Of a stretch of 39,616 nt of DNA, positions 8,745 through 21,722 are shown in pieces. The notes under the pieces are model-generated. The model ran no database searches. It was not told the DNA's origin and worked only from the letters and a program-made list of their open reading frames with translations. Where the stretch lies: positions 1 through 39,616 of the forward strand of contig JANOTL010000026.1 of NCBI GenBank assembly GCA_031416315.1. The letters are read 5' to 3'. Source of the stretch: Pseudomonadota bacterium (GTDB lineage: Bacteria > Bdellovibrionota_B > Oligoflexia > Oligoflexales > CAIYRB01). The position numbers and the translations under genes are program-made. Numbering within the stretch: position 1 is the first letter of the stretch; each line of letters starts with the position of its first letter.

Positions 8745-10172
8745 ATGGCGGCGCAAAACGACGTCGATCTGCGGCAAATCGCTCGCCAGGCCATGGTGGA
8801 GCTCGGCTTCGCGGTCGAGTTTTCCGCCGCCGCCTTGGCTGAGCTCTCGGCCTTGGACCCTGCGCCCGAGCTGGCTGAAGCCGGCGTTCGCGACTTGCGT
8901 TCGCGACTTTGGTGCTCGATCGATAATGACAGCACGCGCGACCTCGACCAACTGACGGTTGCCGAGCGCGTCGCCGGCGGTGCGGTCATCGTGTGCGTCG
9001 CCGTCGCCGACGTCGACGCCTCGGTGCGCCGCGGCTCGGCGCTCGATGCGCATGCCGAGCGCAATACGACGTCGGTCTATACGGCGGTCGAGACGTTTCC
9101 GATGCTGCCGGAGCGCCTCTCGACCGATCTGACCTCGCTCCGGGAGGGCGTAGGTCGCCTCGCGGTGGTCGTCGAGCTGCGCCTCGGGCCGAAAGGGGAG
9201 CTCGAGGGAGCCGACTTCTATCGCGCCGCCGTGCACAATTACGCCAAGCTCACGTATGACGGTGTTTCGGCCTGGCTGAACGGCGAGGGGCCGCTACCCG
9301 AGCGCGCCGCGCGCGCGGGCGAGGCGATGGCGGCTCAGCTACGCTTGCAGGACGAGGTCGCGGGGAAGATGCGGGTTCTCCGGCACGAAAACGGGGCGCT
9401 GGCGCTCGAGGTGTCCGAGTCGCGGGGCGAAGGCGCCCGCGCCCGCGCTCTGATCGAGGATTTCATGATCGGCGCCAACGCGGCGACGGCTGGGTACTTG
9501 TCGCGCCACGGCCTCCCTTCGCTGCGCCGGATCGTCCGGGAGCCCAAGCGCTGGGACCGGATCGTCGAGCTCGCGCGGGGCCACGGCGCGAACCTGCCCG
9601 CCGCTCCGGACGCGAAAGCGCTGGCGAGTTTCCTCGAGGCCCGTCGGCACGCCGATCCGATCCGCTTTGCGGATCTGTCCCTGGCGATCGTGAAGCTCTT
9701 GGGCAAGGGCGAGAATGTCGTGGAGCTCCCCGGCGCGACGAGCCTCGGCCACTTCGGCCTGGCGGTGCGCGACTATGCGCACTCGACGGCGCCGAATCGA
9801 CGCTTTACCGATCTGATCACGCAGCGGATCCTTAAGGCGGCGCTCGCGGGCGTCGCGACTCCCTATGCGCCATCGGAGCTGGCGCGCTTGGCAGCGCATT
9901 GCACGGCGCAAGAGGACGCCGCGAACAAGGTCGAGCGGCGCCTGCGAAAGTCGGCGATGGCGCAATCTTATCGTGACCGCATCGGCGCGGTCTTTCCGGC
10001 TCTCGTCACCGGCGCCGCGGCCAAGGGGACGTGGGTGCGCCTCCTCGCCTCGCCGCCCGTAGAAGGCAAGCTCGTGCGCGGGGAGCGCGGGGTCGACGTC
10101 GGCGACGAGGTCGTGGTGCGCCTCCTCCGTGTCGATGTCGCGCGGGGATTCATCGACTTCGAGCGCGCTTGA
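8745..10172 (+). CDS. Compact RNB-domain exoribonuclease (RNase II/R family)
   Basis: SIDNDSTRDLDQ active-site motif, VAVADV, TSVY..FPMLP, LIEDFMIGAN, HFGLA..YAHSTAPNRRFTDL, short C-terminal S1-like domain, no N-terminal cold-shock domains. Confidence 0.9.
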   Translation: MAAQNDVDLRQIARQAMVELGFAVEFSAAALAELSALDPAPELAEAGVRDLRSRLWCSIDNDSTRDLDQLTVAERVAGGAVIVCVAVADVDASVRRGSALDAHAERNTTSVYTAVETFPMLPERLSTDLTSLREGVGRLAVVVELRLGPKGELEGADFYRAAVHNYAKLTYDGVSAWLNGEGPLPERAARAGEAMAAQLRLQDEVAGKMRVLRHENGALALEVSESRGEGARARALIEDFMIGANAATAGYLSRHGLPSLRRIVREPKRWDRIVELARGHGANLPAAPDAKALASFLEARRHADPIRFADLSLAIVKLLGKGENVVELPGATSLGHFGLAVRDYAHSTAPNRRFTDLITQRILKAALAGVATPYAPSELARLAAHCTAQEDAANKVERRLRKSAMAQSYRDRIGAVFPALVTGAAAKGTWVRLLASPPVEGKLVRGERGVDVGDEVVVRLLRVDVARGFIDFERA

Positions 10173-10195
10173 GACTTACGGACACGATTGGGTCC

Positions 10196-10279
10196 CCTTC
10201 TCGCGGCCGTAATTGCCCGACCGTGAGAAGGTGCCCCGGCAAGTCGTTCAGCCGCTGATGAATCCAACGCGCTGAACGA
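10196..10279. terminator. Two stem-loops between the convergent RNB and DPGQ genes
   Basis: CCTTCTCGCGGCCG/CGACCGTGAGAAGG (10196-10231) and TCGTTCAGC/GCTGAACGA (10244-10279). No poly-T tail, so terminator function is uncertain. Confidence 0.4.
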
Positions 10280-10305
10280 TCGGACCGGGGACTCGACGCG
10301 CGCCG

Positions 10306-10587
10306 TTAGCGGCCGTTTTGTCCCGGGTCTTGACCAGGATCTTGGCCCGGGTCCTGACCGGGGTCTTGGCCCGGGTCCTGACCAGGATCTTGGCCCGGGT
10401 CCTGACCGGGGTCTTGGCCCGGGTCCTGACCGGGGTCTTGGCCCGGGTCCTGACCAGGATCTTGGCCCGGGTCCTGACCAGGATCTTGGCCCGGGTCCTG
10501 ACCAGGATCTTGGCCCGGATCATCCGCAAAGGCAGCGCTACTCAGGGCGAGCAAACCGGAGAGCAGAAGCGAGGCGAAAATTTTCAT
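10306..10587 (-). CDS. Small secreted (DPGQ)17 repeat protein
   Basis: AAAGGGAA RBS, ATG 10587, Sec signal MKIFASLLLSGLLALSSAAFA, then D(DPGQ)17NGR. All unit-to-unit nucleotide variation is synonymous in this frame. Confidence 0.85.
   Translation of the reverse strand: MKIFASLLLSGLLALSSAAFADDPGQDPGQDPGQDPGQDPGQDPGQDPGQDPGQDPGQDPGQDPGQDPGQDPGQDPGQDPGQDPGQDPGQNGR
10318..10521 (-). repeat. 17 x 12-bp tandem repeat with 24-bp higher-order periodicity
   Basis: Alternating units GACCCGGGCCAA and GATCCTGGTCAG/GACCCCGGTCAG on the minus strand. Confidence 0.97.
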
Positions 10588-10634
10588 GTCGGTTCCCTTT
10601 ACACACTTTTGAACAGCGACGCCGACAACCGGCG

Positions 10635-12230
10635 TCACTCTGCACCCGTAAGGTATTCCACGCTGTCGATGCGGATCGGCGCGCTGGACGGCGCCTCCGT
10701 TTGGTTCACCAAATGGAGCGACTCGAACGTTTGCAGCGGGATTTGCCCGCCCGCAGCGAGCTCGGCCAAGGTGCGCGTCACCTCCATCGGCGCCGATTGC
10801 CCTTGGTTCGGATAGAGCGGCAATCCGCGCGCGACGACCGCGAGGCCGGCGGTCGCCGAGCCGGCGCCGATCGTAAGCCCGACGAGACCCGCGGACGGCG
10901 GCAGCGCCGGCAGCACCACGACCTCGTTCGGCTGGAGCTCGACCGCGATGTCGAGGGCGAGAGGTCGATGGCGGCGCGTCGCCACCGGCAAATCGCGCAT
11001 CAGCCCGAGCACGGCGTCGTGGTCGATGTTGGGATTCTCGCGGCCGCAAAGGCGCTGCGCCAGTGGCACCCAAAGGAAGTCGGGATTCTCCGACAGCCAG
11101 GTACCGGAGACGATCTCGCCCGCTGCGTCGAGAACGAGCTTGTACGAATAAACGCGCTGATGGATCGCGCTCGCCGCGAATCCGAGCGCCTCGTCGCGCT
11201 CGAAGTCGTAGCCGTGCATGCGGAGCGTCGCGTCGACCTTGAAGGTGTTCGCTTCGCCGTCGACCGGCGCGATGACGAAGCTGGCGCCCGAGATGACGTT
11301 GTTGTCGACGCTCTCGTTCGGGTAGTAGTCCATGGCGAGAGGCTTGCCTTCGTCACGCAGATAGTGGACGAGCGCTTTGTGAAAGACGTCGGGGTAGATG
11401 TCGAGCGGATCGTCGGCCGGGCCTGCGTTGTTGCGCCGGCCGTAGAACGTCCAGTAAACGCAGAAGCTCGCCTCCGCGAGCATGCCGTTGAAGTCGGAGA
11501 TCAGCACGTTTTGCTGCGTCAAAGGATCCCAGCGCGGCGCATCGACCTCTTCGTGCAAAATCGCGCTAGCCGCCCAGCCGTTGCAATGCCCGCCCCAAGA
11601 AACGGTTTGCAGGGAGTGCATGCGCGCCTCCCACGCCGACGCGCCGGGGTTCGTCCCGGTACGGGCCTCGATCATCGCGTCGTACTTGCCCAGAGGCGAG
11701 CCGGGGCCGGCCGCGAGCTCGACGGCGGAATGCGGCCACCAATACGCGTCGTAAGGATAAGCCTCTTCCGGGAGCAAGTACTCTTGCGAGCCGGCCTCGA
11801 TGCGGATCGGATCGTCCTTGGCGAGCGGCGCCGCGCGGAAGTCGCGCAGGATCTTGCCCAGGCGCTGCGCTTCCGCTGCGGCGACGCCGGCGTGCGCCCG
11901 CCGCGCGTGACGTCCCATCTTCTCCTTCGCCGCGGGTGCCGGCAGCGGGTCGAGGCCGATGTAGCGAGACTTTATCGTCCGCAACTTGCCCTTCGCGCGT
12001 GATCCCGTCGTGATTGAGCGCAGGCGCCCTTCCGGATCGCGCTCATAGAGAGCGGTCAGCTCGGGGAGGAAGCGGCCGCCGTCGGCGTTGAAGACCAGAC
12101 TCTCGGACCCTGACTCGGCGTAGCACCAGATCGATTCGGTGACGGAGCCATCGGCAGGCAGATTCTCGGGGGAGTCGGGACTGTCGACCGCAAAGCAGGT
12201 CGCAGCGACGATGAGAGCTTCGGTGATCAA
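10635..12230 (-). CDS. Transglutaminase-elicitor (Phytophthora GP42-like) family protein
   Basis: Ordered family-like motifs PYDAYWWP, SPLGKYD, WGGHCNGWAASA (putative catalytic Cys about 11583-11585), YSYKL.LD..GEI.SG.W...NPDFLW. TTG start overlaps the S8 stop (TTGA) with a GAAGGAG RBS. Confidence 0.75.
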   Translation of the reverse strand: MITEALIVAATCFAVDSPDSPENLPADGSVTESIWCYAESGSESLVFNADGGRFLPELTALYERDPEGRLRSITTGSRAKGKLRTIKSRYIGLDPLPAPAAKEKMGRHARRAHAGVAAAEAQRLGKILRDFRAAPLAKDDPIRIEAGSQEYLLPEEAYPYDAYWWPHSAVELAAGPGSPLGKYDAMIEARTGTNPGASAWEARMHSLQTVSWGGHCNGWAASAILHEEVDAPRWDPLTQQNVLISDFNGMLAEASFCVYWTFYGRRNNAGPADDPLDIYPDVFHKALVHYLRDEGKPLAMDYYPNESVDNNVISGASFVIAPVDGEANTFKVDATLRMHGYDFERDEALGFAASAIHQRVYSYKLVLDAAGEIVSGTWLSENPDFLWVPLAQRLCGRENPNIDHDAVLGLMRDLPVATRRHRPLALDIAVELQPNEVVVLPALPPSAGLVGLTIGAGSATAGLAVVARGLPLYPNQGQSAPMEVTRTLAELAAGGQIPLQTFESLHLVNQTEAPSSAPIRIDSVEYLTGAE

Positions 12231-14323
12231 CGCACGACTCCTTCGCGTTCGGTCCAAAGGCGTACGTTCTTGAGGAGCCAGCCGTCTCGCTCGTCGCCGC
12301 CGTCCGAGACGAGGCGGAAGCGGATGGTCACGTCGCCGCCGAGCAGCGCCGCGGGGACCTGGACGAAGGCCGTCTCGAAGCCATTACGACGGCCGGTGAC
12401 TCGCAGCAGCTCTTGCCAGACGGCGCCGCCGTCGCTCGAGGCCTCGACGGCCCCGTAATCGAGGCTTGGCTCTAGCGTATGCCGCTGCCTGAGCTCGACG
12501 AAAAGAGCGGCGACGCCGACCGTGGAGACGCTCGGCAATGTCAGCGCTGAGTCCTGCATCTCGGAGTAGTTTCCGTCGGGACTGTCCGAGAAGACGAGCT
12601 CGGTCGTCGACGTGCCGTCCTCGCCCGGCAACTCAGCGGGAGTCTCCTGGACTCCCCAGGTGCCCGAAAGGCCCAGGCCCTCGGTCGAAGCGCCGGTGTG
12701 CTCGGCCGTCAGCGTCATCTTTCGCGCGGCGGCGCGGAGCGGCTCGCTGAGCGGGCTCAAGTTGCGGAAATCGTCGCGAGCGCGCACGGCGACGTAGATC
12801 TCGGTGTTGAAAGAGAGACCCGGAATTAGCTGGGCAAGGCCGCCCCCGGTGATGGTGCCGGCGACCGTCGCGGCCGTCCACAGCTCCTCTGTCGTGATCG
12901 GGGCCGGGGCGTAACGCACCTCGTACGATGAAGCGTTGCCGGAGATGCCGTCGTCTCCGGCTGCGTCCCACTCGATGGTGAGCGAGTCGCGTGCCGCGAC
13001 CGCGACGCGGACGTTGGCGACGGCGGCAGGCGCCACGACGTCGTCCTGCAGGGCATGCGCCAACGCCAACCGTCCTCCGGTCTGCGCCGCGATGCCCAGG
13101 ATGGGCTTACTGCTCTTGACGAGGCGCTCCACGATTTGGGACGCGTTGAGAGTCGGGTCCGCAGCTTTGACCAAAGCTGCCGCGCCCGCCACGAACGGCG
13201 TCGCCGATGAAGCGCCGGTGCGGTAGCCGTAGCCCCCGCCCGGAGTTGTCGAGTAGATCTTGACGCCCGGCGCGACAAGCGTCGTTACGGGACCGATCCG
13301 CGCCCAGGACGGCACGAGATCCGCGTGGTCGCTCGCGCCGACCGCGATCGTTGCGGCGGTTTGGAAGTCGGCGGGATAGATCGCGGGCGCGCTCGTGCCG
13401 TCGCTCGGACGACTTCCGGACGAAGACACCATGACGATGCCGGCCTCGGTGGCTGCGGTCATCGCCGCGGTGAGGCTCGGCGAGAAGTCCCGGAAGCTGA
13501 AGCTGTTGCTCGTGACATGGGCGCCGATAACGCGCGCATAGGCGAGCGCCTCGATCAATCCGGCGAGCGTTCCCGACCCGTAGCGGTCGAGGAACTTGAT
13601 CGGGACGAGAGACACCTGCCAATTGACGCCCGTCACGCCGATGCCGTTGCCGCCGACGGCGCCGATGATGCCGGCGCAGTGGGTGCCGTGCCCGTGGTCG
13701 TCCTGCGGATCGTTGTCGCCGCTCACCAGGTCCCAGCCGTGCCAGTCGTCGACGTAGCCGTTCGCGTCGTCGTCCACGCCGTTACTCTGCTTGTCGCGGC
13801 CTTGGTCGTCGGCGCCGGTCTCGCCCGCGTTGACGAAGATGTTGGACGCGAGGTCGGGGTGGGCGAAATCGATGCCCGTATCCAACACCGCCACGCGCAC
13901 GTCGCGCGAGCCGCGCGTTACGTCCCAAGCGATCGTTGCGCCAATGTCCGCGCCGGCCAAGCCACGCGTCTGGCCGGTGTTCTCGAGGCCGTAAAGGCGG
14001 AAGAACTCGGGATCGTCGGGACGGTGGTCGGCGGTGATGACGTAGTTGGGCTCGACGTGATCGACGCCGCGCAACGAGGCGAGCGCCGCCTTGTCGCCGC
14101 TCGTCTCGACGAGGAAGAGGCCTTCGCTTGAAATCTCGCGCAAGACGCGCATTCCGTGGCGCGAGAGCTGCGCGCGCAGGCTGACTTTCGCGCCGGACGC
14201 ATCGGCGTGGCGCACGATGAATTGCCCGGGAATCGCCCGAATTTCCGGCTCGGGAGCGGCGCTCGCGAGCGCCGTCCAAAGTCCGAGCCCGGCCCCGATG
14301 AATCGCCGGTCCCATGCCGTCAT
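12227..14323 (-). CDS. Secreted subtilisin-like S8 peptidase with propeptide, Fn3 and C-terminal beta-sandwich
   Basis: AGGAGAG RBS, signal peptide, I9-like prodomain (PGQFIVR...VEPNY), VAVLDTG, HGHGTHCAG, TGASSATPFVAG, Fn3 (W.AAGDDG..G.A..YEVRY), SDSPDGNY...DYG.VE.S.DGG..W. Confidence 0.92.
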   Translation of the reverse strand: MTAWDRRFIGAGLGLWTALASAAPEPEIRAIPGQFIVRHADASGAKVSLRAQLSRHGMRVLREISSEGLFLVETSGDKAALASLRGVDHVEPNYVITADHRPDDPEFFRLYGLENTGQTRGLAGADIGATIAWDVTRGSRDVRVAVLDTGIDFAHPDLASNIFVNAGETGADDQGRDKQSNGVDDDANGYVDDWHGWDLVSGDNDPQDDHGHGTHCAGIIGAVGGNGIGVTGVNWQVSLVPIKFLDRYGSGTLAGLIEALAYARVIGAHVTSNSFSFRDFSPSLTAAMTAATEAGIVMVSSSGSRPSDGTSAPAIYPADFQTAATIAVGASDHADLVPSWARIGPVTTLVAPGVKIYSTTPGGGYGYRTGASSATPFVAGAAALVKAADPTLNASQIVERLVKSSKPILGIAAQTGGRLALAHALQDDVVAPAAVANVRVAVAARDSLTIEWDAAGDDGISGNASSYEVRYAPAPITTEELWTAATVAGTITGGGLAQLIPGLSFNTEIYVAVRARDDFRNLSPLSEPLRAAARKMTLTAEHTGASTEGLGLSGTWGVQETPAELPGEDGTSTTELVFSDSPDGNYSEMQDSALTLPSVSTVGVAALFVELRQRHTLEPSLDYGAVEASSDGGAVWQELLRVTGRRNGFETAFVQVPAALLGGDVTIRFRLVSDGGDERDGWLLKNVRLWTEREGVVR

Positions 14324-14392
14324 GCCAGCTCTCTCCTAGTTCATCTGCAAAGATGTGCCGGATGTTGTTCCGGGGATAATGATCCTCCGCGC

Positions 14393-14420
14393 AAAAAAAA
14401 TCCCGGAATTACTTCCGGGT
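14393..14420 (-). terminator. Intrinsic terminator upstream of the S8 operon
   Basis: Minus strand CCCGGAA-GTAA-TTCCGGG-A-T8. Confidence 0.7.
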
Positions 14421-14594
14421 CTTGATTTATGCGTTGACGGAATGAGACACGGCTGCTTGACGCGGCTCAGGAACTTCCTGTTCCGGACGTGTCGCCCGTG
14501 TTGCGCTTAGGTTTGCGCGCGCCGAAATCGGTCGGCGACGACTGCCTCAAAATTGATACACTAACAAACTGCTGCTTGGGGTCGAGGCACCCGA

Positions 14595-15689
14595 TCAGTT
14601 CGGGAACAGGTAGCCCGCTACGCCTTCGTAGTTGGTCCAGCCGCCCTCGTTCACCTTCTCGCCGCCGCATTCAGCGGCGGTGGACGACTTGCCGACGCAG
14701 CCAGGTCCGGCCGCGAAGGTGAAGTGGTGGTCGCCGTTCGTCGGATTGTACCAGCGATGAATGGGCTTGGTGAACGGCTCTTCTTTTGCGAAGACCTGGT
14801 AGGCGCCTTCCAGGACGAACCCGAGCGAGGTGACGGCGTTGTTCTTCTCGGCCTCGCTCGTCGTATAGAAATGGTCGGCGCTCGCGCCTTTGAATAAGCG
14901 GTAGAACGGCGCAAGGCCAGGAACCGCGGGGCGATCGAGGGGCATGGCGTAGAAAGCGATGCCCTCATAGTTCGTCCAGCCGCCCTCGTTCACGAGCTCG
15001 CCGCCGCATTCGGCCGCGGCGGACGACTTGCCGACGCAGCCGGGGCCGGCGGCAGGCGTGAAGAAGTGGTCGCCCTTCGTCGGGTTGAACCAGCGGTGGA
15101 TCGGGATGGCGTCGACGCATTCGTCGCCGATGCGATATTTTCGGTTCGCGCAGACGAGTTCAGAGGCGAAGTCTTCGACGGCGATCGCGCCGCCGCTTCC
15201 CGGCGGCACGGGCGCCCCTTCGATCTCGGATCCGGTCCCCGGATTGCCGCTGGCGAGGTCGGAGTCTTCGCCGACCTGGACGAAAATCGTGCGTTCCTTG
15301 CCGTCGGGCCCCTTGACCAGAATCTTGGCGGGGCCGTCCTTGAGCGCCTTGAGATCGCATTTGGCGGCGTCGAAGCTGGCGACTTCCGGGGCGCTCGAGC
15401 TCCCCTCCGCGCCGGTGACCTTGAATTTTTCGCAGAGGTTGAGCTCGTCGCCCGGCTTCAGTTTCAGCGGCTTGTCTTCGGTCGGCAAGACCGGTGCGCT
15501 CGTGGTGCCGGGATTTTTTTTGCCATCTTTCTTGCCGTCGCCCTCGGGCTCGTCGCCATCTTCCGAAGTGACGCTCTCCTTCGGGTTCGGCTGCGCTTTC
15601 GTCGATTTCTTGTCGCCGGACGCGAAGTCACTGTCGCTGCAGGCGACGAGGCTCGCACAAAGGACGCTGGCGACAAAGTGACGAAGCAT
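14595..15689 (-). CDS. Lipoprotein with Lys-rich linker, Ig-like (Big_2-like) domain and three DUF5648-like repeats
   Basis: GGAGG RBS, lipobox LVAC, SSSAPEVASFD..Big_2-like segment, three (P)xxRxx....DH(F/H)(F/Y)T....EG repeats. Confidence 0.82.
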   Translation of the reverse strand: MLRHFVASVLCASLVACSDSDFASGDKKSTKAQPNPKESVTSEDGDEPEGDGKKDGKKNPGTTSAPVLPTEDKPLKLKPGDELNLCEKFKVTGAEGSSSAPEVASFDAAKCDLKALKDGPAKILVKGPDGKERTIFVQVGEDSDLASGNPGTGSEIEGAPVPPGSGGAIAVEDFASELVCANRKYRIGDECVDAIPIHRWFNPTKGDHFFTPAAGPGCVGKSSAAAECGGELVNEGGWTNYEGIAFYAMPLDRPAVPGLAPFYRLFKGASADHFYTTSEAEKNNAVTSLGFVLEGAYQVFAKEEPFTKPIHRWYNPTNGDHHFTFAAGPGCVGKSSTAAECGGEKVNEGGWTNYEGVAGYLFPN

Positions 15690-15821: not shown

Positions 15822-18800
15822 TCAGCGCTCGATTTCGAGCGCCAGGCCTTCACTGAATGCGGCATACTCTGGCGCATAAAGGGGCTGCAGCGTCGCCGCA
15901 CCGGCTTGAAATTCGCCGCTCGTGGCCGCGCGGAGCATATGCTTCAAGACGTGCGTCCCCTTCGGCAGCGCGTCGATGAAGAAATTCAGGCCGCTGTCGC
16001 GGACTTCCTCGTAGCGACCCAGGCCTTGGCTCCAGTTGTAACCGGTGGTGGTGGAAGCGGGCTCGAAGCCGGCCGGGCGAGGATCGCGAACGTGGACGAA
16101 CTCGGCGGCCTCTCGCGCGGTGATCGTGAGCTCGACCTCGACTTCGTCGCCGAGCGGGACCGTATCGCCGTCGTCGAGCGTTGCGAACGCCGCGGCGCGG
16201 CCGAGGAAGCCTTCGCGTTTGTGCAGGAAGCGGCGCTCGATCTTGAACAACGCGCCGGTTCCAGCGCGGGTCGGCTTCGCCGTCCGGTAGATCCAGGTGG
16301 CCGTGCCGAACGCCGGACCGTTGCCGCTTGCCGCGAAAGAGACTGTGCGCAATGCCTTGTTCTTAACGTTGTTTCCTGTGAAGACCAGCTCTCGCTTGCT
16401 CGACGTGCTTCTGCCTCCGATGGTGATCGTCACGACGGGGAGGTCCAAGGTCGCGCGCTTGCCGTAGTGCCGGAGGAGGGCGAACGTCGCCTCGGCTGTG
16501 GCGCGGGTCGACTTCCAGTGCGCGAGCTTGCGGTTCACGAGGAGCCAACGCGCGAGGCCCTCGGCGCGTGGATCTAAAGGGGCGAGCGCTTGGATGGCGA
16601 GGAGCGCCGACGCGTGGAGTTCGACAGGATCTTCAGCCCAGAGCCAAGGCTGCGCGCCCACGGGGAAGGAGGCGGTCCCCGTCGCCGCGTCTTCCTGGAG
16701 GGCATCCAGAGCGGCGCGGAAGACGGCGCTCGCGTCGGTCTTCCGCGCCGCCTTCGCTAGAGCTTGCGCGAGGAGGAGCTGGGGTCTTCGGCTCATTTTT
16801 TTCCAGACGCCGAACGCCGCATCGAGCGCGGCGCCGCGCGCCTTCGCGTCGAGGGAGTCCGAGGCGACGAGCGCGTACGCGACGAAGGCGAGCTCGTCGG
16901 GCGCGAGCTTCATCTTTCGCTGCCCGTCGATATACCGCGCTGTTCGGGAGGCGATCTTGGCCAGCTCGGGGTCGGCTTTGAGGTGCGCTTCTTCGCCGAC
17001 TGTCACCGTCGCCGCGAGCGACGACAAGACCAGCGCGCTCATATAGACCGAGGTTTTGCCGCCGGAAAACCACGGAAATCCGCCATCATCGTCCTGCAGA
17101 GCGGCCAGGCGCTGCAAAGCGCGCGTTTCGATTTTCGCGGCGACGCCGGGGCGCAAGAGATTCAGGCTCACCGCCTCCGCGTCCTTTGCCGAGGCAACCG
17201 GCGACGCAAGCCAAGGCGTCTCCTCGGTGGCGACGCGGCGGAGCGAATCGACCGGCAAGCCACCCGGCGCGGTTTTGGCGCTGGCTGCGAGCCGCGGCGC
17301 CGCGACGGCGACATAGCGAGCGACTCGCGCCGCGAACAAGCGGCTCGCCGACTGTTCCGCGCACTCGAAGGGATACTCGATCACATACGGCAGGGCATCG
17401 AGCAAGGTCTTCAGCGGATCGGCGTCGACGCGGACGACGACGCGCTCTAGGCTCATGTCGGCAGCATCGGGGACCGAGACGGACTCCGAGCGGTTCTGGA
17501 CACCCTTCTCCGCTTTGAGAAAAGCCGCGCGGGACTCGGCGACGATCTGCCGCGCGCTCAGAATCGGCAGTCGTCGTTTCTCGCCGTCCGCCAGCTTTCC
17601 CGCGCTTACTTTGGCCTCAACGACCATTTCGCGCGGCCCCAGAGGCGCTTTCACGCGGAGGGCCAGGGCGACGGACCCCGCGGCGCCGATGCGGAGCTTC
17701 TCCGTCTTCTTTGCCAGCTCGGCGCCGGCTTCGTCGCGGACGACGATCTCGATGACGGCGTCCGCGACCTCCGCACGCGCGTTCTCGACGAGCACCGTGA
17801 GCTCGGCCTCGTCGCCGTCGCGGACGAAGCGCGGCACAACGAGGCGCGCGGCGAGGTCTTTGGCGGTGCGTATCTGTCGCAAAAGCGCGCCGGCGCGCAG
17901 ATCCTTGGTCACAGCGTGGATCCAGAGGTTCCAAGCCGAGAGGGTTTCTGGTGCGGTGAAAGCGATGGTCGCGACGCCCGCTGCGTCCGTCGCGACCTGC
18001 GGCGCGAAGAACGCCGACTCGCGAAAGTCTTGCCGCGCGGGGGGAGCCGAGCCGGGCGGGCTTTGCGGGCCGGCGAGCTTCAGATCCATCGCCGGTTTCG
18101 CAGGACTCGGTCCGCCGCCGCCGAAGCTTAGGCCGCCGCTGCCGCTGCCGAAGCTGCCGACGGCATCGCCTAGGGCGCCGAGGCCGAGCGCTCCAGACGG
18201 AGTCTCTGTTGCCGTCATGCCGCCGGACACGACCGGCTCTCCGAGCCGTAAGGTGAGACCTAGTCCGAGAGACTTGAGGTTGACGCCCGCTGGAAAATTG
18301 GCCTTTTCCGCGATGAACGCCCATTTCATCTGGTCGCCGTGCAGGTCGGGCCAGGTCTCCTTCAGCCGCAAATTTATGGAGTCAAAATGAGTCGTCCCTT
18401 CGACGTGCTCGGAAGAGTTGATCGTAGACGGCGCGTTCATGGTCAACGGATAGAGGCTTAGAGGTGTAGGTGGCGCATGCTTTGCGATGCGATCAAGGCT
18501 CTTGTCATACATGTAGGCGAGGAGCTCTGCGGCGACTTTCTGGCGATCTCGGCCGCGTACGTTCACCTTCAATATTTCCTGGGCGCCGGGCTCGGTGTGG
18601 TCGCGAAACCGCTCGAGACTTATGTCTAGGATCCGGTCGACCCAAGGCACCGCGAGATCTTGGCTCGCGACGTAGACCTGGTGGTCGCGCACGACGGTAA
18701 GCTGAAGCACCAGGCCGCCGCGATCCTCCGACCGGATCGGCAGACGCAGGATGCCGTGAGCGCCAGGCTCCAGCGCGCGCCGCCAGACGCGCGCGCCGCT

Positions 18801-21722
18801 CCGATAGGCGTCGAGGAACAGCGGGCCTCCGAACCCAGAGTGCGCGAGAATCGTGGCCGTGTCGCCGCTCGCATGCTTGGGCTTAGCAATCGCGAGGAAG
18901 ACCGGTACCGCGAGCGGCAGCGGCGCGTCGCCGGCGGCGACGAAATTGAGTCTGGATTTGGCTTCCTTGTCGGTGGGATCGGTCGTGCGCAAAGTCACGC
19001 GATAGGCGCCTGGCGTGAGACCTGGGACCGAGATGGTGGCGCTGCCCGCTTGGTCGTGCAGCGCCTCGCCGCGCGCGACCTCGTCGCCCAAAGACCACTC
19101 CGCCAGCTCGCGCTGGGCGCTATAGGCGACTTCCGGAAGGATCAGTTCGAGGCGGCCGCTATTAGTCCTTTGTCGCGGCTTGCTCATTGTCTTAGGGCTT
19201 AGTCCACGCGACGAGCTGGGCGCCTGCGGCTGTGCCAGGCGATGGACGGTCCAGGTCGCCGCGCCGGCACGCGGGGCTCCGTCGAGGTCACCGCGCCAGG
19301 CCGCGAGCTCGATCGGCCTGCCCGCCGCCGCGAACCCGTCTGCGAAGGCGAGGCGTGTCATCAAGCTTGCGGCGGCGGCGCGCAGAGAATTCGAGATGGC
19401 GTGCGTCTCGCCGCCTCGATCGAGCGCCTCCAGCTCCAATCCGAACTCCCAAACGGCATCTGCGAGGCGTGGATCTTTCTCTGCACCGACGGGAGCTTTA
19501 GGTGTGAACTCGAAGCTGAAGCGACCAGTGGCATCGGTGACGGCGACGCCGGTTCCGAGATCCGCGCTCGCATGGACTTCACCATCGTCCGCGGCGGCAG
19601 GGGCAACGCGACCTTTTAATGCGACGGTCCATCGGACACGGGCGCCAGCTGCCGGCGCGCCGAAGAGGTAGCGCACCTCGCCTTCGACGAGCGCCGGTAC
19701 GCCGAGTCGTGCCGGCTCTCGCAACGGTAGGACTTTGGCCTCGAACGTCGGTCGCTTGTATTCTTCGACTTGCACGCCGGCGTTGCTGCCGTCGTCGCCT
19801 TCGATCTGGAGCGCCCAGCGGCCGAGCAGACGTCCTTCCGGCAGGACGAAGCTGCCAGCCACGCTGCCAAAGGCGTTGGCCTTCAAGGTTTTTTTCGTCA
19901 CCAGCTGGTACCGGGCGTCCAGAAGCTTGACCGTGAGCTTGCGCCCGGAGTCGGCGGCGAAGTCGCCGGCCTTTCTGCCGTGTCGATACGCCAGTGCCTT
20001 GAAATGCAGGGTCTGCCCGGGTCGGTAGACGGGACGATCGACGTAAATTAAAGCCCCTTGCTCGGAAGCTTCCGTCAATTCGAAGACGTTCATGAAAAAG
20101 ATGTCGTCGTCGACGACGACGCGCTCCTTACCGCTGCGGATCACGATGGCGCTTTGAGACGTTTCGCTCTTGCGCTTTCGCAAGACCCGGGCCCCGCCGG
20201 TCGCGTCGGTAGCGGCGCTGCCAAGGATCCGGCTCAAGCGTCCGTTGGCGGTCTTTGACCGGATTTCCACCGCGGCGCCCCGGATTGGTACGCCGGACTT
20301 CCCTTCGTAAACGTTCACCGCGGCGGCGTCGGGTTCCAGTCCGACGCTGTAGGCAAAGCTGGCGATGTCGAGGGTGACCGTTCGCAAGAGATTGCCAACC
20401 TTGGCAAAGCTGGGCCGTAGACTGGCTACGACGGTGTAGGTTCCGCGTTTTGTGAAGGGGGTCACGACTTCGACTTCATGCGCTTCGAAGTCGCCGACAG
20501 TCTCTATTGGCTGCGACCAAGCGAAGGCCGGTTTACCCTTCACGACCGTACCGGCGTAAGCACGAAAGTGGATCTCCGGCGCGTTGGCGACCGTGACCGT
20601 GATCGAGGCGCGGCGCGGGCCGTCGACCCGGACCGCCCGCATGTTCAGTACGGGGAGTTCGTGCTCCGCGATCAGTGCCCGAGCCGCGCGTCCGCCGATG
20701 GACCCAGGGTGCTTCGCTGCGGCGGCCGTCGCCAGCGCTCGTGCCGCGACGCGGTCTTCGCGATGCTCGAAAAGGCGCGCTGCCAGACGCGCCGTCCCGA
20801 AGGCCCACCAAGCCTCTTCTTCCTGGCCGGCGAGCGCGGCCTCCCATGCCGAGATCAGCGCGTCGCGCGCATCCGCGCGGCGCAGCCCGTCAAAAAGAGC
20901 GTCGAGTCGGTCGATCCGCGCAGCTAGGGCGGCGCCATTACGCCCCTGCGCCTTGTGCCAAGCCTCGAGGTCGGCATAGAGCGCGGCGATGCGATCCAAA
21001 GGATGAGTGACGAAATCGTCCGGGGCGTAAGCCTTGGGATTGGTTTCGAGCAGCTCTGCGACCGCGCGGCCGGCAGCCTCGCTCTCGCGCATTACGCCCC
21101 AGTGCGTCGTGTTGCCCAGGTGGGTGGCCGCCGCGCGTGTCAGCGCATCTCGGACGGTCGCGCGCACACCTTCTGGAAAGTCGTTGGGATCGACGAGGTC
21201 AGCATAGTCGGAAACTTTCGCATCCCCAAGAGCGTCGCGCGCTTTCCAGGCCGCACCGAGCGTGAGCTCTGCAGCGCGGCCGTACTCGGCTCGACTCCAG
21301 CTGTCGATGGCGCGTGTCGGCCCTGCGGCGGTGGGTTCGCCCGCCTCGCGAGTCCAGGCACGTTCTAGGGCTTGGCGCGTCGCCTCGGCATAGACCACGG
21401 CAAGGATGGCAGCCAGGGTCGGATCTTTTGGCGGGGGCTGGGAGCGCAGGGCTTCGAGTCCGCGGTCGTGCTGGTCGTAGATCGCAGCGTTCAGCGCGGC
21501 GATCTGGGCCAGTGCGCGGGCCGTCATGCGCTCGTCTTTCGCCTTGCGCGCCGCCGCGAGGAGCGGCTTGAGGCGCTTCAAGGCCGCGTTGGGCTCCGAG
21601 GCCCTCACAAGCGCCGCAACGGTTAGCCATTCGTCTTCGGGACTCGCACCGAGGGTGGGCGGGCCGAAAGACAGCAGGAAGACGAGAGCGGCGGGAACGG
21701 CGCTACGTAGGCGGGATTGCAT
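15822..21722 (-). CDS. Bacterial alpha-2-macroglobulin with thioester motif
   Basis: Signal peptide, DRPVYRPGQ, VEEYKRPTFE, RQDFRESAFF, PETLSAW, PRFVRDGD, YPFECAEQ (thioester CxEQ at 17352-17363), LQDDDGGFPWF, WKSTRATA, DPRPAGFEP, LYAPE. Confidence 0.95.
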   Translation of the reverse strand: MQSRLRSAVPAALVFLLSFGPPTLGASPEDEWLTVAALVRASEPNAALKRLKPLLAAARKAKDERMTARALAQIAALNAAIYDQHDRGLEALRSQPPPKDPTLAAILAVVYAEATRQALERAWTREAGEPTAAGPTRAIDSWSRAEYGRAAELTLGAAWKARDALGDAKVSDYADLVDPNDFPEGVRATVRDALTRAAATHLGNTTHWGVMRESEAAGRAVAELLETNPKAYAPDDFVTHPLDRIAALYADLEAWHKAQGRNGAALAARIDRLDALFDGLRRADARDALISAWEAALAGQEEEAWWAFGTARLAARLFEHREDRVAARALATAAAAKHPGSIGGRAARALIAEHELPVLNMRAVRVDGPRRASITVTVANAPEIHFRAYAGTVVKGKPAFAWSQPIETVGDFEAHEVEVVTPFTKRGTYTVVASLRPSFAKVGNLLRTVTLDIASFAYSVGLEPDAAAVNVYEGKSGVPIRGAAVEIRSKTANGRLSRILGSAATDATGGARVLRKRKSETSQSAIVIRSGKERVVVDDDIFFMNVFELTEASEQGALIYVDRPVYRPGQTLHFKALAYRHGRKAGDFAADSGRKLTVKLLDARYQLVTKKTLKANAFGSVAGSFVLPEGRLLGRWALQIEGDDGSNAGVQVEEYKRPTFEAKVLPLREPARLGVPALVEGEVRYLFGAPAAGARVRWTVALKGRVAPAAADDGEVHASADLGTGVAVTDATGRFSFEFTPKAPVGAEKDPRLADAVWEFGLELEALDRGGETHAISNSLRAAAASLMTRLAFADGFAAAGRPIELAAWRGDLDGAPRAGAATWTVHRLAQPQAPSSSRGLSPKTMSKPRQRTNSGRLELILPEVAYSAQRELAEWSLGDEVARGEALHDQAGSATISVPGLTPGAYRVTLRTTDPTDKEAKSRLNFVAAGDAPLPLAVPVFLAIAKPKHASGDTATILAHSGFGGPLFLDAYRSGARVWRRALEPGAHGILRLPIRSEDRGGLVLQLTVVRDHQVYVASQDLAVPWVDRILDISLERFRDHTEPGAQEILKVNVRGRDRQKVAAELLAYMYDKSLDRIAKHAPPTPLSLYPLTMNAPSTINSSEHVEGTTHFDSINLRLKETWPDLHGDQMKWAFIAEKANFPAGVNLKSLGLGLTLRLGEPVVSGGMTATETPSGALGLGALGDAVGSFGSGSGGLSFGGGGPSPAKPAMDLKLAGPQSPPGSAPPARQDFRESAFFAPQVATDAAGVATIAFTAPETLSAWNLWIHAVTKDLRAGALLRQIRTAKDLAARLVVPRFVRDGDEAELTVLVENARAEVADAVIEIVVRDEAGAELAKKTEKLRIGAAGSVALALRVKAPLGPREMVVEAKVSAGKLADGEKRRLPILSARQIVAESRAAFLKAEKGVQNRSESVSVPDAADMSLERVVVRVDADPLKTLLDALPYVIEYPFECAEQSASRLFAARVARYVAVAAPRLAASAKTAPGGLPVDSLRRVATEETPWLASPVASAKDAEAVSLNLLRPGVAAKIETRALQRLAALQDDDGGFPWFSGGKTSVYMSALVLSSLAATVTVGEEAHLKADPELAKIASRTARYIDGQRKMKLAPDELAFVAYALVASDSLDAKARGAALDAAFGVWKKMSRRPQLLLAQALAKAARKTDASAVFRAALDALQEDAATGTASFPVGAQPWLWAEDPVELHASALLAIQALAPLDPRAEGLARWLLVNRKLAHWKSTRATAEATFALLRHYGKRATLDLPVVTITIGGRSTSSKRELVFTGNNVKNKALRTVSFAASGNGPAFGTATWIYRTAKPTRAGTGALFKIERRFLHKREGFLGRAAAFATLDDGDTVPLGDEVEVELTITAREAAEFVHVRDPRPAGFEPASTTTGYNWSQGLGRYEEVRDSGLNFFIDALPKGTHVLKHMLRAATSGEFQAGAATLQPLYAPEYAAFSEGLALEIER

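Follow-up and report, generated by a model that had tools for sequence, protein, structure and literature searches.

A conserved gene pair couples a GP42-fold cysteine enzyme to a glutamine-repeat protein that may be its cross-linking substrate

Enzymes of the GP42 type are known to cross-link glutamine to lysine residues (PMC4915311), and a 2016 review records GP42 homologues only in oomycetes and Vibrio (PMC4915311). For the secreted transglutaminase (TGase) of Streptomyces mobaraensis, an activator, TAMP, and several inhibitor substrates, SSTI, SPI and DAIP, have been described (PMC4757070). Here we analyze a locus from a Pseudomonadota bacterium (placed by GTDB in Bdellovibrionota_B, Oligoflexia), where a gene for a cysteine enzyme of GP42 fold (family PF16683) is preceded by a gene for an S8 subtilase and followed by a gene for a protein with tandem DPGQ repeats. 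The three genes lie in what we call the window, i.e., the whole stretch of 39,616 nucleotides (nt) analyzed from contig JANOTL010000026.1 (assembly GCA_031416315.1). The enzyme gene and the DPGQ-repeat gene form a conserved two-gene unit. We put at roughly 55% the probability that the repeat protein, likely exported, is the dedicated Gln-donor substrate of the enzyme and acts as a cross-linking scaffold, the S8 gene being a local addition that is not needed for enzyme activation. In the titles and abstract openings listed by our literature searches, we found neither a bacterial PF16683 gene with a Gln-repeat partner nor a natural substrate of a bacterial GP42-type enzyme.

The linkage was assessed in 160 fetched loci, 86 belonging to the subfamily of the window enzyme and 74 more distant. 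We considered as linked those loci in which an open reading frame (ORF) with at least two [DN]PGQ motifs lies on the same strand within 400 nt of the enzyme gene, or is fused to it. Linkage was observed at 20/86 subfamily loci versus 0/74 more distant loci. After dereplication at 90% identity, 18 of the 68 clusters were linked, with the repeat gene downstream (10 clusters), upstream (6) or fused (2), and linkage was seen in 12 of the 53 clusters having both flanks in view. Two further enzyme-repeat fusions were found (P0143, P0146). The linked enzymes are only 26-57% identical, and their loci span a GC content of 33-66%. In the fusions, the repeats are attached to the enzyme's own C-terminus. 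The partners with an intact 5' end all start with a leader, followed by the bare repeat, a small module with a Cys pair, or Cys-rich spacers, so that the variants exchange everything but the Gln repeat. A preliminary description of this DNA had expected both a signal-peptide DPGQ gene and an S8 protease to accompany the enzyme in other genomes: the first expectation is borne out, in three arrangements, while none of the 160 loci contains an S8 gene (68 of the 86 subfamily loci have at least 2 kb upstream). One partner (L119:7859-8317) has 25 Cys residues and CGCPTQDPGQG-type repeats, with a make-up like that of keratin-associated proteins.

The same association emerges when searching in reverse, from the repeat to the enzyme. 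The pattern DPGQDPGQ was found in 9 of 401 genomes (0 for a reversed-pattern control), and in 8 of these 9 it is located beside or inside a subfamily enzyme (the matches in genomes G134 and G135 were placed by coordinates). The match in genome G303 is new with respect to the forward search, and the enzyme there is split. This split enzyme has no catalytic segment, yet an intact (DPGQ)6 gene lies behind it (L359:5105-6192, contig G303:C7).

Gln repeats also accompany other members of the family. In the window genome, which carries eight full-length PF16683 copies and one fragment, 4 of 9 Gln tandem arrays adjoin a PF16683 gene, versus 0 of 29 non-Gln arrays (Fisher p 0.0017); the repeat genes C26 and C40 had been missed by the gene caller and were added to this count by hand. 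The paralogues next to the GNPGQ and GDGGQ repeats (C119 and C40; Table 1) keep the canonical Cys-His motif. Of the 60 loci from other subfamilies, two (L264 and L302) have neighbours with a signal and a Gln repeat, and L013 has a Gln-rich tail; no Gln-repeat neighbour was found by a stricter rule at the 29 short loci L010-L038. Following another PF16683 subfamily, we noted a conserved small secreted Cys-containing protein with short Gln-rich ends (G000 C178:3882-4406; L013:498-1184). Overall, PF16683 members were found in 122 of the 131 host-group genomes, with at most 15 matches each, and in 0 of 14 control genomes. The names of homologues suggest that the host is related to Bdellovibrionota/Oligoflexia. 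Three PF16683 genes stand in tandem at L296 (G069:C367).

The DPGQ protein of the window consists of a signal-like segment of 22 amino acids (aa), 17 DPGQ units and a terminal NGR, and is likely exported. Its 17 units use six different 12-mers, which differ at third codon positions only, and the same restriction holds for the five other arrays checked; this points to selection on the array as a peptide. Since the mature repeat has no Lys, it would be unable to polymerize alone. No NCBIfam model scored above its cut-off for the enzyme or for the repeat partners.

The GP42-like fold attributed to the enzyme in the preliminary description is supported both by profiles and by structure. The match to PF16683 (25.0 bits) is exactly at the curated cut-off, and a profile of the subfamily matches GP42 (PDB 3tw5) with an E value of 1.4e-11. 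The predicted model of the enzyme (predicted local distance difference test, pLDDT, 92) has 3tw5 as its top Foldseek match (E 3.1e-10), and the structure alignment (VIA) to it gives Z 21.6, with a root-mean-square deviation of 3.8 over 265 aligned residues, compared with Z 7.2 for the next best structure. Active-site conservation was scored over 71 aligned close homologues (P0072 was omitted from alignment A1). The proposed catalytic residue, Cys216, sits at the start of a helix, is invariant (71/71), and aligns with the position of the GP42 Cys, which reads Ser in the 3tw5 chain, presumably an engineered mutant. The Cys-His motif of GP42 is not kept, and all 71 homologues have His-Cys-Asn in its place. 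In GP42, a His directly follows the catalytic Cys (the "CH" motif; PMC10318531). Three residues invariant in the 71 homologues, His205, His215 and His284, are possible substitutes for this His, while Asn310 and Glu253 (67/71 each) both fall in registers of the third polar residue of GP42, an Asn on strand 2 or an Asp on a helix. Given the fold and the invariant Cys, but also the His-Cys-Asn triplet, we regard the enzyme as one whose fold suggests that it works as GP42 does, though with an active site of a variant kind, and withhold strict GP42-type membership.

The N-terminal 130 residues, previously proposed to be a basic pro-region, have a calculated isoelectric point of 7.8 (4.1 for residues 11-65, 11.7 for 66-130). 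They form instead a confidently folded (pLDDT 91), conserved, disulfide-bearing beta domain, and their last part aligns with the GP42 structure. Cleavage of this region may still occur. Among the loci examined, this domain is confined to the subfamily of the window enzyme. It has no Pfam family, no Atlas match and no clear solved fold (best Z 5.2), which does not by itself establish a new fold. Homology between the domain and the Cys-pair module of the partners was considered and rejected (hhalign probability 3%). The C-terminal beta-sandwich weakly resembles fibre domains and domains that bind carbohydrate (Z about 7). Clear leaders are seen in homologues of the enzyme, the L042 orthologue among them. 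In the window, an upstream in-frame TTG at 12257 (12230-12257, minus strand; 20 aa before Cys12) would add an Arg-rich start, without a clear Shine-Dalgarno sequence.

As the two genes are adjacent or fused in many bacteria that are only distantly related, the DPGQ repeat is likely the natural substrate of the enzyme. We suggest that both proteins would be exported, and that Cys216 would form a thioester with Gln residues of the repeat. The acyl group could then be transferred to amines, of Lys or otherwise, on further proteins that are secreted or lie at the surface, and the multivalent repeat would thereby become a scaffold that covalently cross-links a surface layer or matrix. Several observations weigh against this proposal. 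No counted DPGQ neighbour was present in 50 of the 68 clusters (41 of the 53 with both flanks in view). In a quick, unfinished tree, the link occurs in 0/37 members of one mainly Pseudobdellovibrionaceae clade and in 14/25 other rows on the window's side; the tree omitted 9 loci without the core pattern, which are included in the count of 18/68. Three genomes of the unlinked clade have no DPGQDPGQ match. The reverse search adds little independent material, as 7 of its 8 matches are loci known from the forward search and related genomes do not count as independent. The His that follows the Cys in GP42 is replaced by Asn217 in all 71 subfamily members, and therefore the reaction may differ. The signal region of the window enzyme is very short, with 11 aa before Cys12 versus a median of 30 in 69 homologues. 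Lastly, only 1 of the 29 fetched PGQ[ND]PGQ places in the host group is near a TGase, and in the crude gene set of the window genome, as judged with crude signal rules, no enrichment of PGQ relative to its permutations was seen. As a separate observation, L052, a member of the unlinked clade, has a divergent Gln-repeat lipoprotein nearby.

The S8 protein comprises a signal peptide, a pro-domain, a catalytic domain, and Fn3-like and C-terminal beta domains. Its triad is kept (Asp148, His212, Ser372), but the oxyanion Asn is changed to Ser304, Ala371 replaces the Thr before the nucleophile, and SFS replaces the preceding SWG. The Asn is kept in 10/10 top homologues, 8/8 paralogues and 40/40 further S8 relatives, and the latter 40 all keep the Thr as well. 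An intact paralogue of the window S8 is located at C171:46395-48500. In subtilases, Asn, Thr and neighbouring motifs organize the oxyanion zone (PMC11593635). The divergence is concentrated in residues 266-420, with 34-44% identity versus 51-69% among relatives, and no relative exceeding 44% in this region was found in 130 genomes. The window S8 is thus likely weak or inactive, judging from its sequence. Besides the absence of S8 genes from the 160 enzyme loci, the 60 loci of other subfamilies showed one S8 gene about 2.3 kb away and one weak S8 match, and none of 29 related S8 loci, mostly with about 700 nt of flank, is followed by a TGase gene. A role of the S8 protease as conserved activator, as previously proposed, is not supported in view of these absences and of the altered oxyanion Asn and neighbouring motifs, and we favour a local addition, as part of the reading to which we gave the probability above. 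Processing of a precursor by the S8 protease as in cyanobactins was rejected because the S8 gene is not conserved with the repeat gene.

The ninth genome of the reverse search (G408) offers a second degenerate subtilase: an S8 pseudo-protease with (DPGQ)10 between the pro-domain and the catalytic domain (L357:16624-19278, G408:C36). This S8 homologue (37% over 330 aa) has lost the catalytic Asp and His, and shares SFS with the window protein. Its gene is flanked by two intact-looking S8 genes, and the subfamily enzyme is on another contig. These two cases (n=2) give hints that degenerate S8 proteins may be cargo.

PGQ[ND]PGQ was found in 18 of the 131 host-group genomes. At 17 of the 29 places fetched, the protein has a sequence that roughly matches a lipobox, and the motif often comes after a stretch rich in Lys. 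Many predicted lipoproteins carry NPGQ arrays in their linkers and tails (L229-L257), as possible pairs of Gln donor and Lys acceptor. The arrays in lipoproteins would fit a portable tag as well as a common linker. If the former, (D/N)PGQ could be a portable tag in Bdellovibrionota/Oligoflexia, by which GP42-fold enzymes weld tagged proteins into a covalent surface layer, the Gram-negative counterpart of sortase anchoring or of the cornified envelope. The layer would take in lipoproteins that bear the tag, free-standing repeat scaffolds, the enzymes themselves and subtilisins that have lost catalysis, and the window S8 would be cargo. We consider this broader scheme possible, if doubtful.

The dedicated-substrate proposal has to be weighed against other explanations of the gene pair. 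The enzyme could be a papain-like hydrolase acting on DPGQ, as a deamidase converting Gln to Glu or as a peptidase cutting the array to short peptides; a deamidated product would be a polyanionic metal-binding peptide. Papain-like folds host many reactions (PMC10318531), and the TGase of Streptomyces is described as commonly hydrolyzing substrate Gln in liquid culture (PMC4757070). Both the substitution of His-Cys-Asn for Cys-His and the lack of Lys in the mature repeat would fit such a reaction. However, enzymes with the canonical Cys-His (C119, C40, L302) have Gln-repeat neighbours too, of different kinds, the only solved relative is a transglutaminase, and repeats fused to the enzyme C-terminus would suit self-anchoring. 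We therefore judge hydrolysis unlikely.

Alternatively, the repeat protein could have a regulatory role. As a decoy or chaperone rich in Gln, it would keep the enzyme engaged in the course of export, and so spare the proteins of the cell itself from being cross-linked. The close coupling and the fusion of the genes, a repeat without an amine acceptor, and the persistence of the repeat gene beside the split enzyme of G303 are in line with this role. Yet most orthologues have no repeat partner, and elaborate variants such as the partner with 25 Cys at L119 and the arrays in lipoproteins and in the S8 pseudo-protease better fit a structural role, making regulation very unlikely.

Just as improbable is the three-part system in which an N-terminal pro-region is cut off by the S8 protease and the enzyme, activated in this way, goes on to cross-link the repeat. 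The S8 and TGase genes do overlap, with a Shine-Dalgarno sequence; the Asp-His-Ser triad is kept, and divergence focused in residues 266-420 could occur in a specialized enzyme. The zymogen of the Streptomyces TGase is indeed activated by proteases, although these are a metalloprotease and an aminopeptidase (PMC4757070). Against this stand the lack of linkage between S8 and TGase genes in either direction of search, the combined change of the oxyanion Asn, the SWG and the Thr in the window S8, and an N-terminal region that is a folded conserved domain.

Still less probable is that DPGQ is a generic disordered linker, adjacent to the enzyme through shared descent or co-regulation of secreted proteins: 28 of the 29 NPGQ array places are away from TGases, PGQ shows no genome-wide enrichment and the linked loci are concentrated in one region of the tree, but this hardly accounts for the switches in gene order, the fusions, the retention across 26-57% identity, the 8/9 result of the reverse test, the absence of the 29 non-Gln arrays from the vicinity of TGases, and the independent Gln repeats beside other paralogues.

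At the locus itself (Table 1), the three minus-strand genes, the 4-bp overlap of TGase start and S8 stop (reading TTGA), the Shine-Dalgarno-like sequence, the 47-bp gap and the 17 DPGQ units were all recovered as given in the preliminary description. The upstream terminator is also present as a hairpin with a T-run; since this pattern was found at 8 sites versus 4.9 +/- 2.2 in shuffled sequence, it is weak evidence when taken alone. A second assembly, possibly from the same source run (freshwater sediment), matches positions 10489-14700 except for 3 letters near 14655, which come from a local repeat. It also matches 10000-10360 and leaves the DPGQ array unbridged, hence the repeat count of 17 depends on the window assembly. 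A fusion of S8 and TGase masked by an assembly error is unlikely, as the second assembly is identical there and the S8 end coincides with that of its homologues. Just upstream, beyond the terminator, lie a gene for a DUF5648 lipoprotein with an internal repeat (14595-15689, minus strand) and a bacterial alpha-2-macroglobulin gene (15822-21722, minus strand). On the other side, an RNase II-family gene (8745-10172, plus strand) converges on the unit, with no terminator pattern found in between.

Table 1. Features of the locus, and Gln-repeat genes elsewhere in the same genome
Feature	Position	Strand	Details
S8 subtilase gene	14323-12227	minus	698 aa; PF00082 E 1.6e-42
TGase-like gene	TTG 12230 to 10635	minus	531 aa; GP42-fold, PF16683
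DPGQ-repeat gene	ATG 10587 to 10306	minus	93 aa; begins 47 nt past the TGase stop
Shine-Dalgarno-like AAGGAG	12238..12243	minus	7 nt ahead of the TGase TTG start
Terminator-like hairpin and T-run	14392..14419 (hairpin 14419-14402)	minus	terminates the lipoprotein gene lying upstream; marks the unit's 5' boundary
Array of 17 x 12 nt	10318..10521	minus	synonymous variation only
Predicted active site His215-Cys216-Asn217	11580..11588	minus	invariant in 71/71 homologues
N-terminal domain, residues 10-135	11826..12203	minus	six-strand sheet and helices, invariant Cys pair
C-terminal beta-sandwich, residues 416-531	10638..10985	minus	present in only some orthologues
Altered oxyanion segment of S8	13412..13426	minus	SSSGS for AAAGN; Asn to Ser304
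Signal and GNPGQ-repeat gene	C119:41769-end; C69:1-126 (probably the tail of the C119 gene)		adjoins a PF16683 paralogue
Signal and GDGGQ-repeat gene	C40:28964-29431		adjoins a PF16683 paralogue
Signal and PGQGN-repeat gene	C3:13118-13741		stands alone

The PF16683 family, listed in the review only from oomycetes and Vibrio, is near-universal and multi-copy in a whole bacterial class. The linkage of the genes points to a candidate substrate of four residues, testable as a synthetic peptide. If our proposal is true, protein conjugation would gain a new pair of enzyme and Q-tag, His-Cys-Asn would represent a variant active site, and there would be a lead to a covalent surface layer, not described before, in bacteria related to Bdellovibrionota.

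Low-complexity repeats of Pro, Gly and Gln are found in eukaryotic TGase substrates such as glutenins, involucrin and the small proline-rich proteins. With these the analogy is one of composition only, the Cys-rich variant at L119 resembling them in make-up. The spore-coat enzyme Tgl of Bacillus subtilis belongs to a different family and acts inside the mother cell, and its substrates are not known to be encoded by an adjacent signal-peptide repeat gene. What it has in common with the proposed system is the spot-welding of a multivalent protein scaffold (SafA/C30, GerQ, YeeK) at the surface (PMC6490927). As in the proposed system, the TGase of S. mobaraensis comes from a bacterium, is secreted, cross-links Gln to Lys and has secreted substrates of its own (PMC4757070). 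It differs in belonging to another enzyme family and in its 45-residue propeptide, removed by a metalloprotease (PMC4757070); moreover, its described substrates are folded inhibitors rather than tandem Gln repeats, and the window unit has no conserved protease. GP42 of Phytophthora sojae resembles the window enzyme in the fold over residues 89-413, the position of the Cys, and the FH and PDF-W motifs. The window enzyme departs from it in having His-Cys-Asn for Cys-His, an N-terminal beta domain and a C-terminal beta-sandwich, and in being genetically linked to a Gln-repeat partner.

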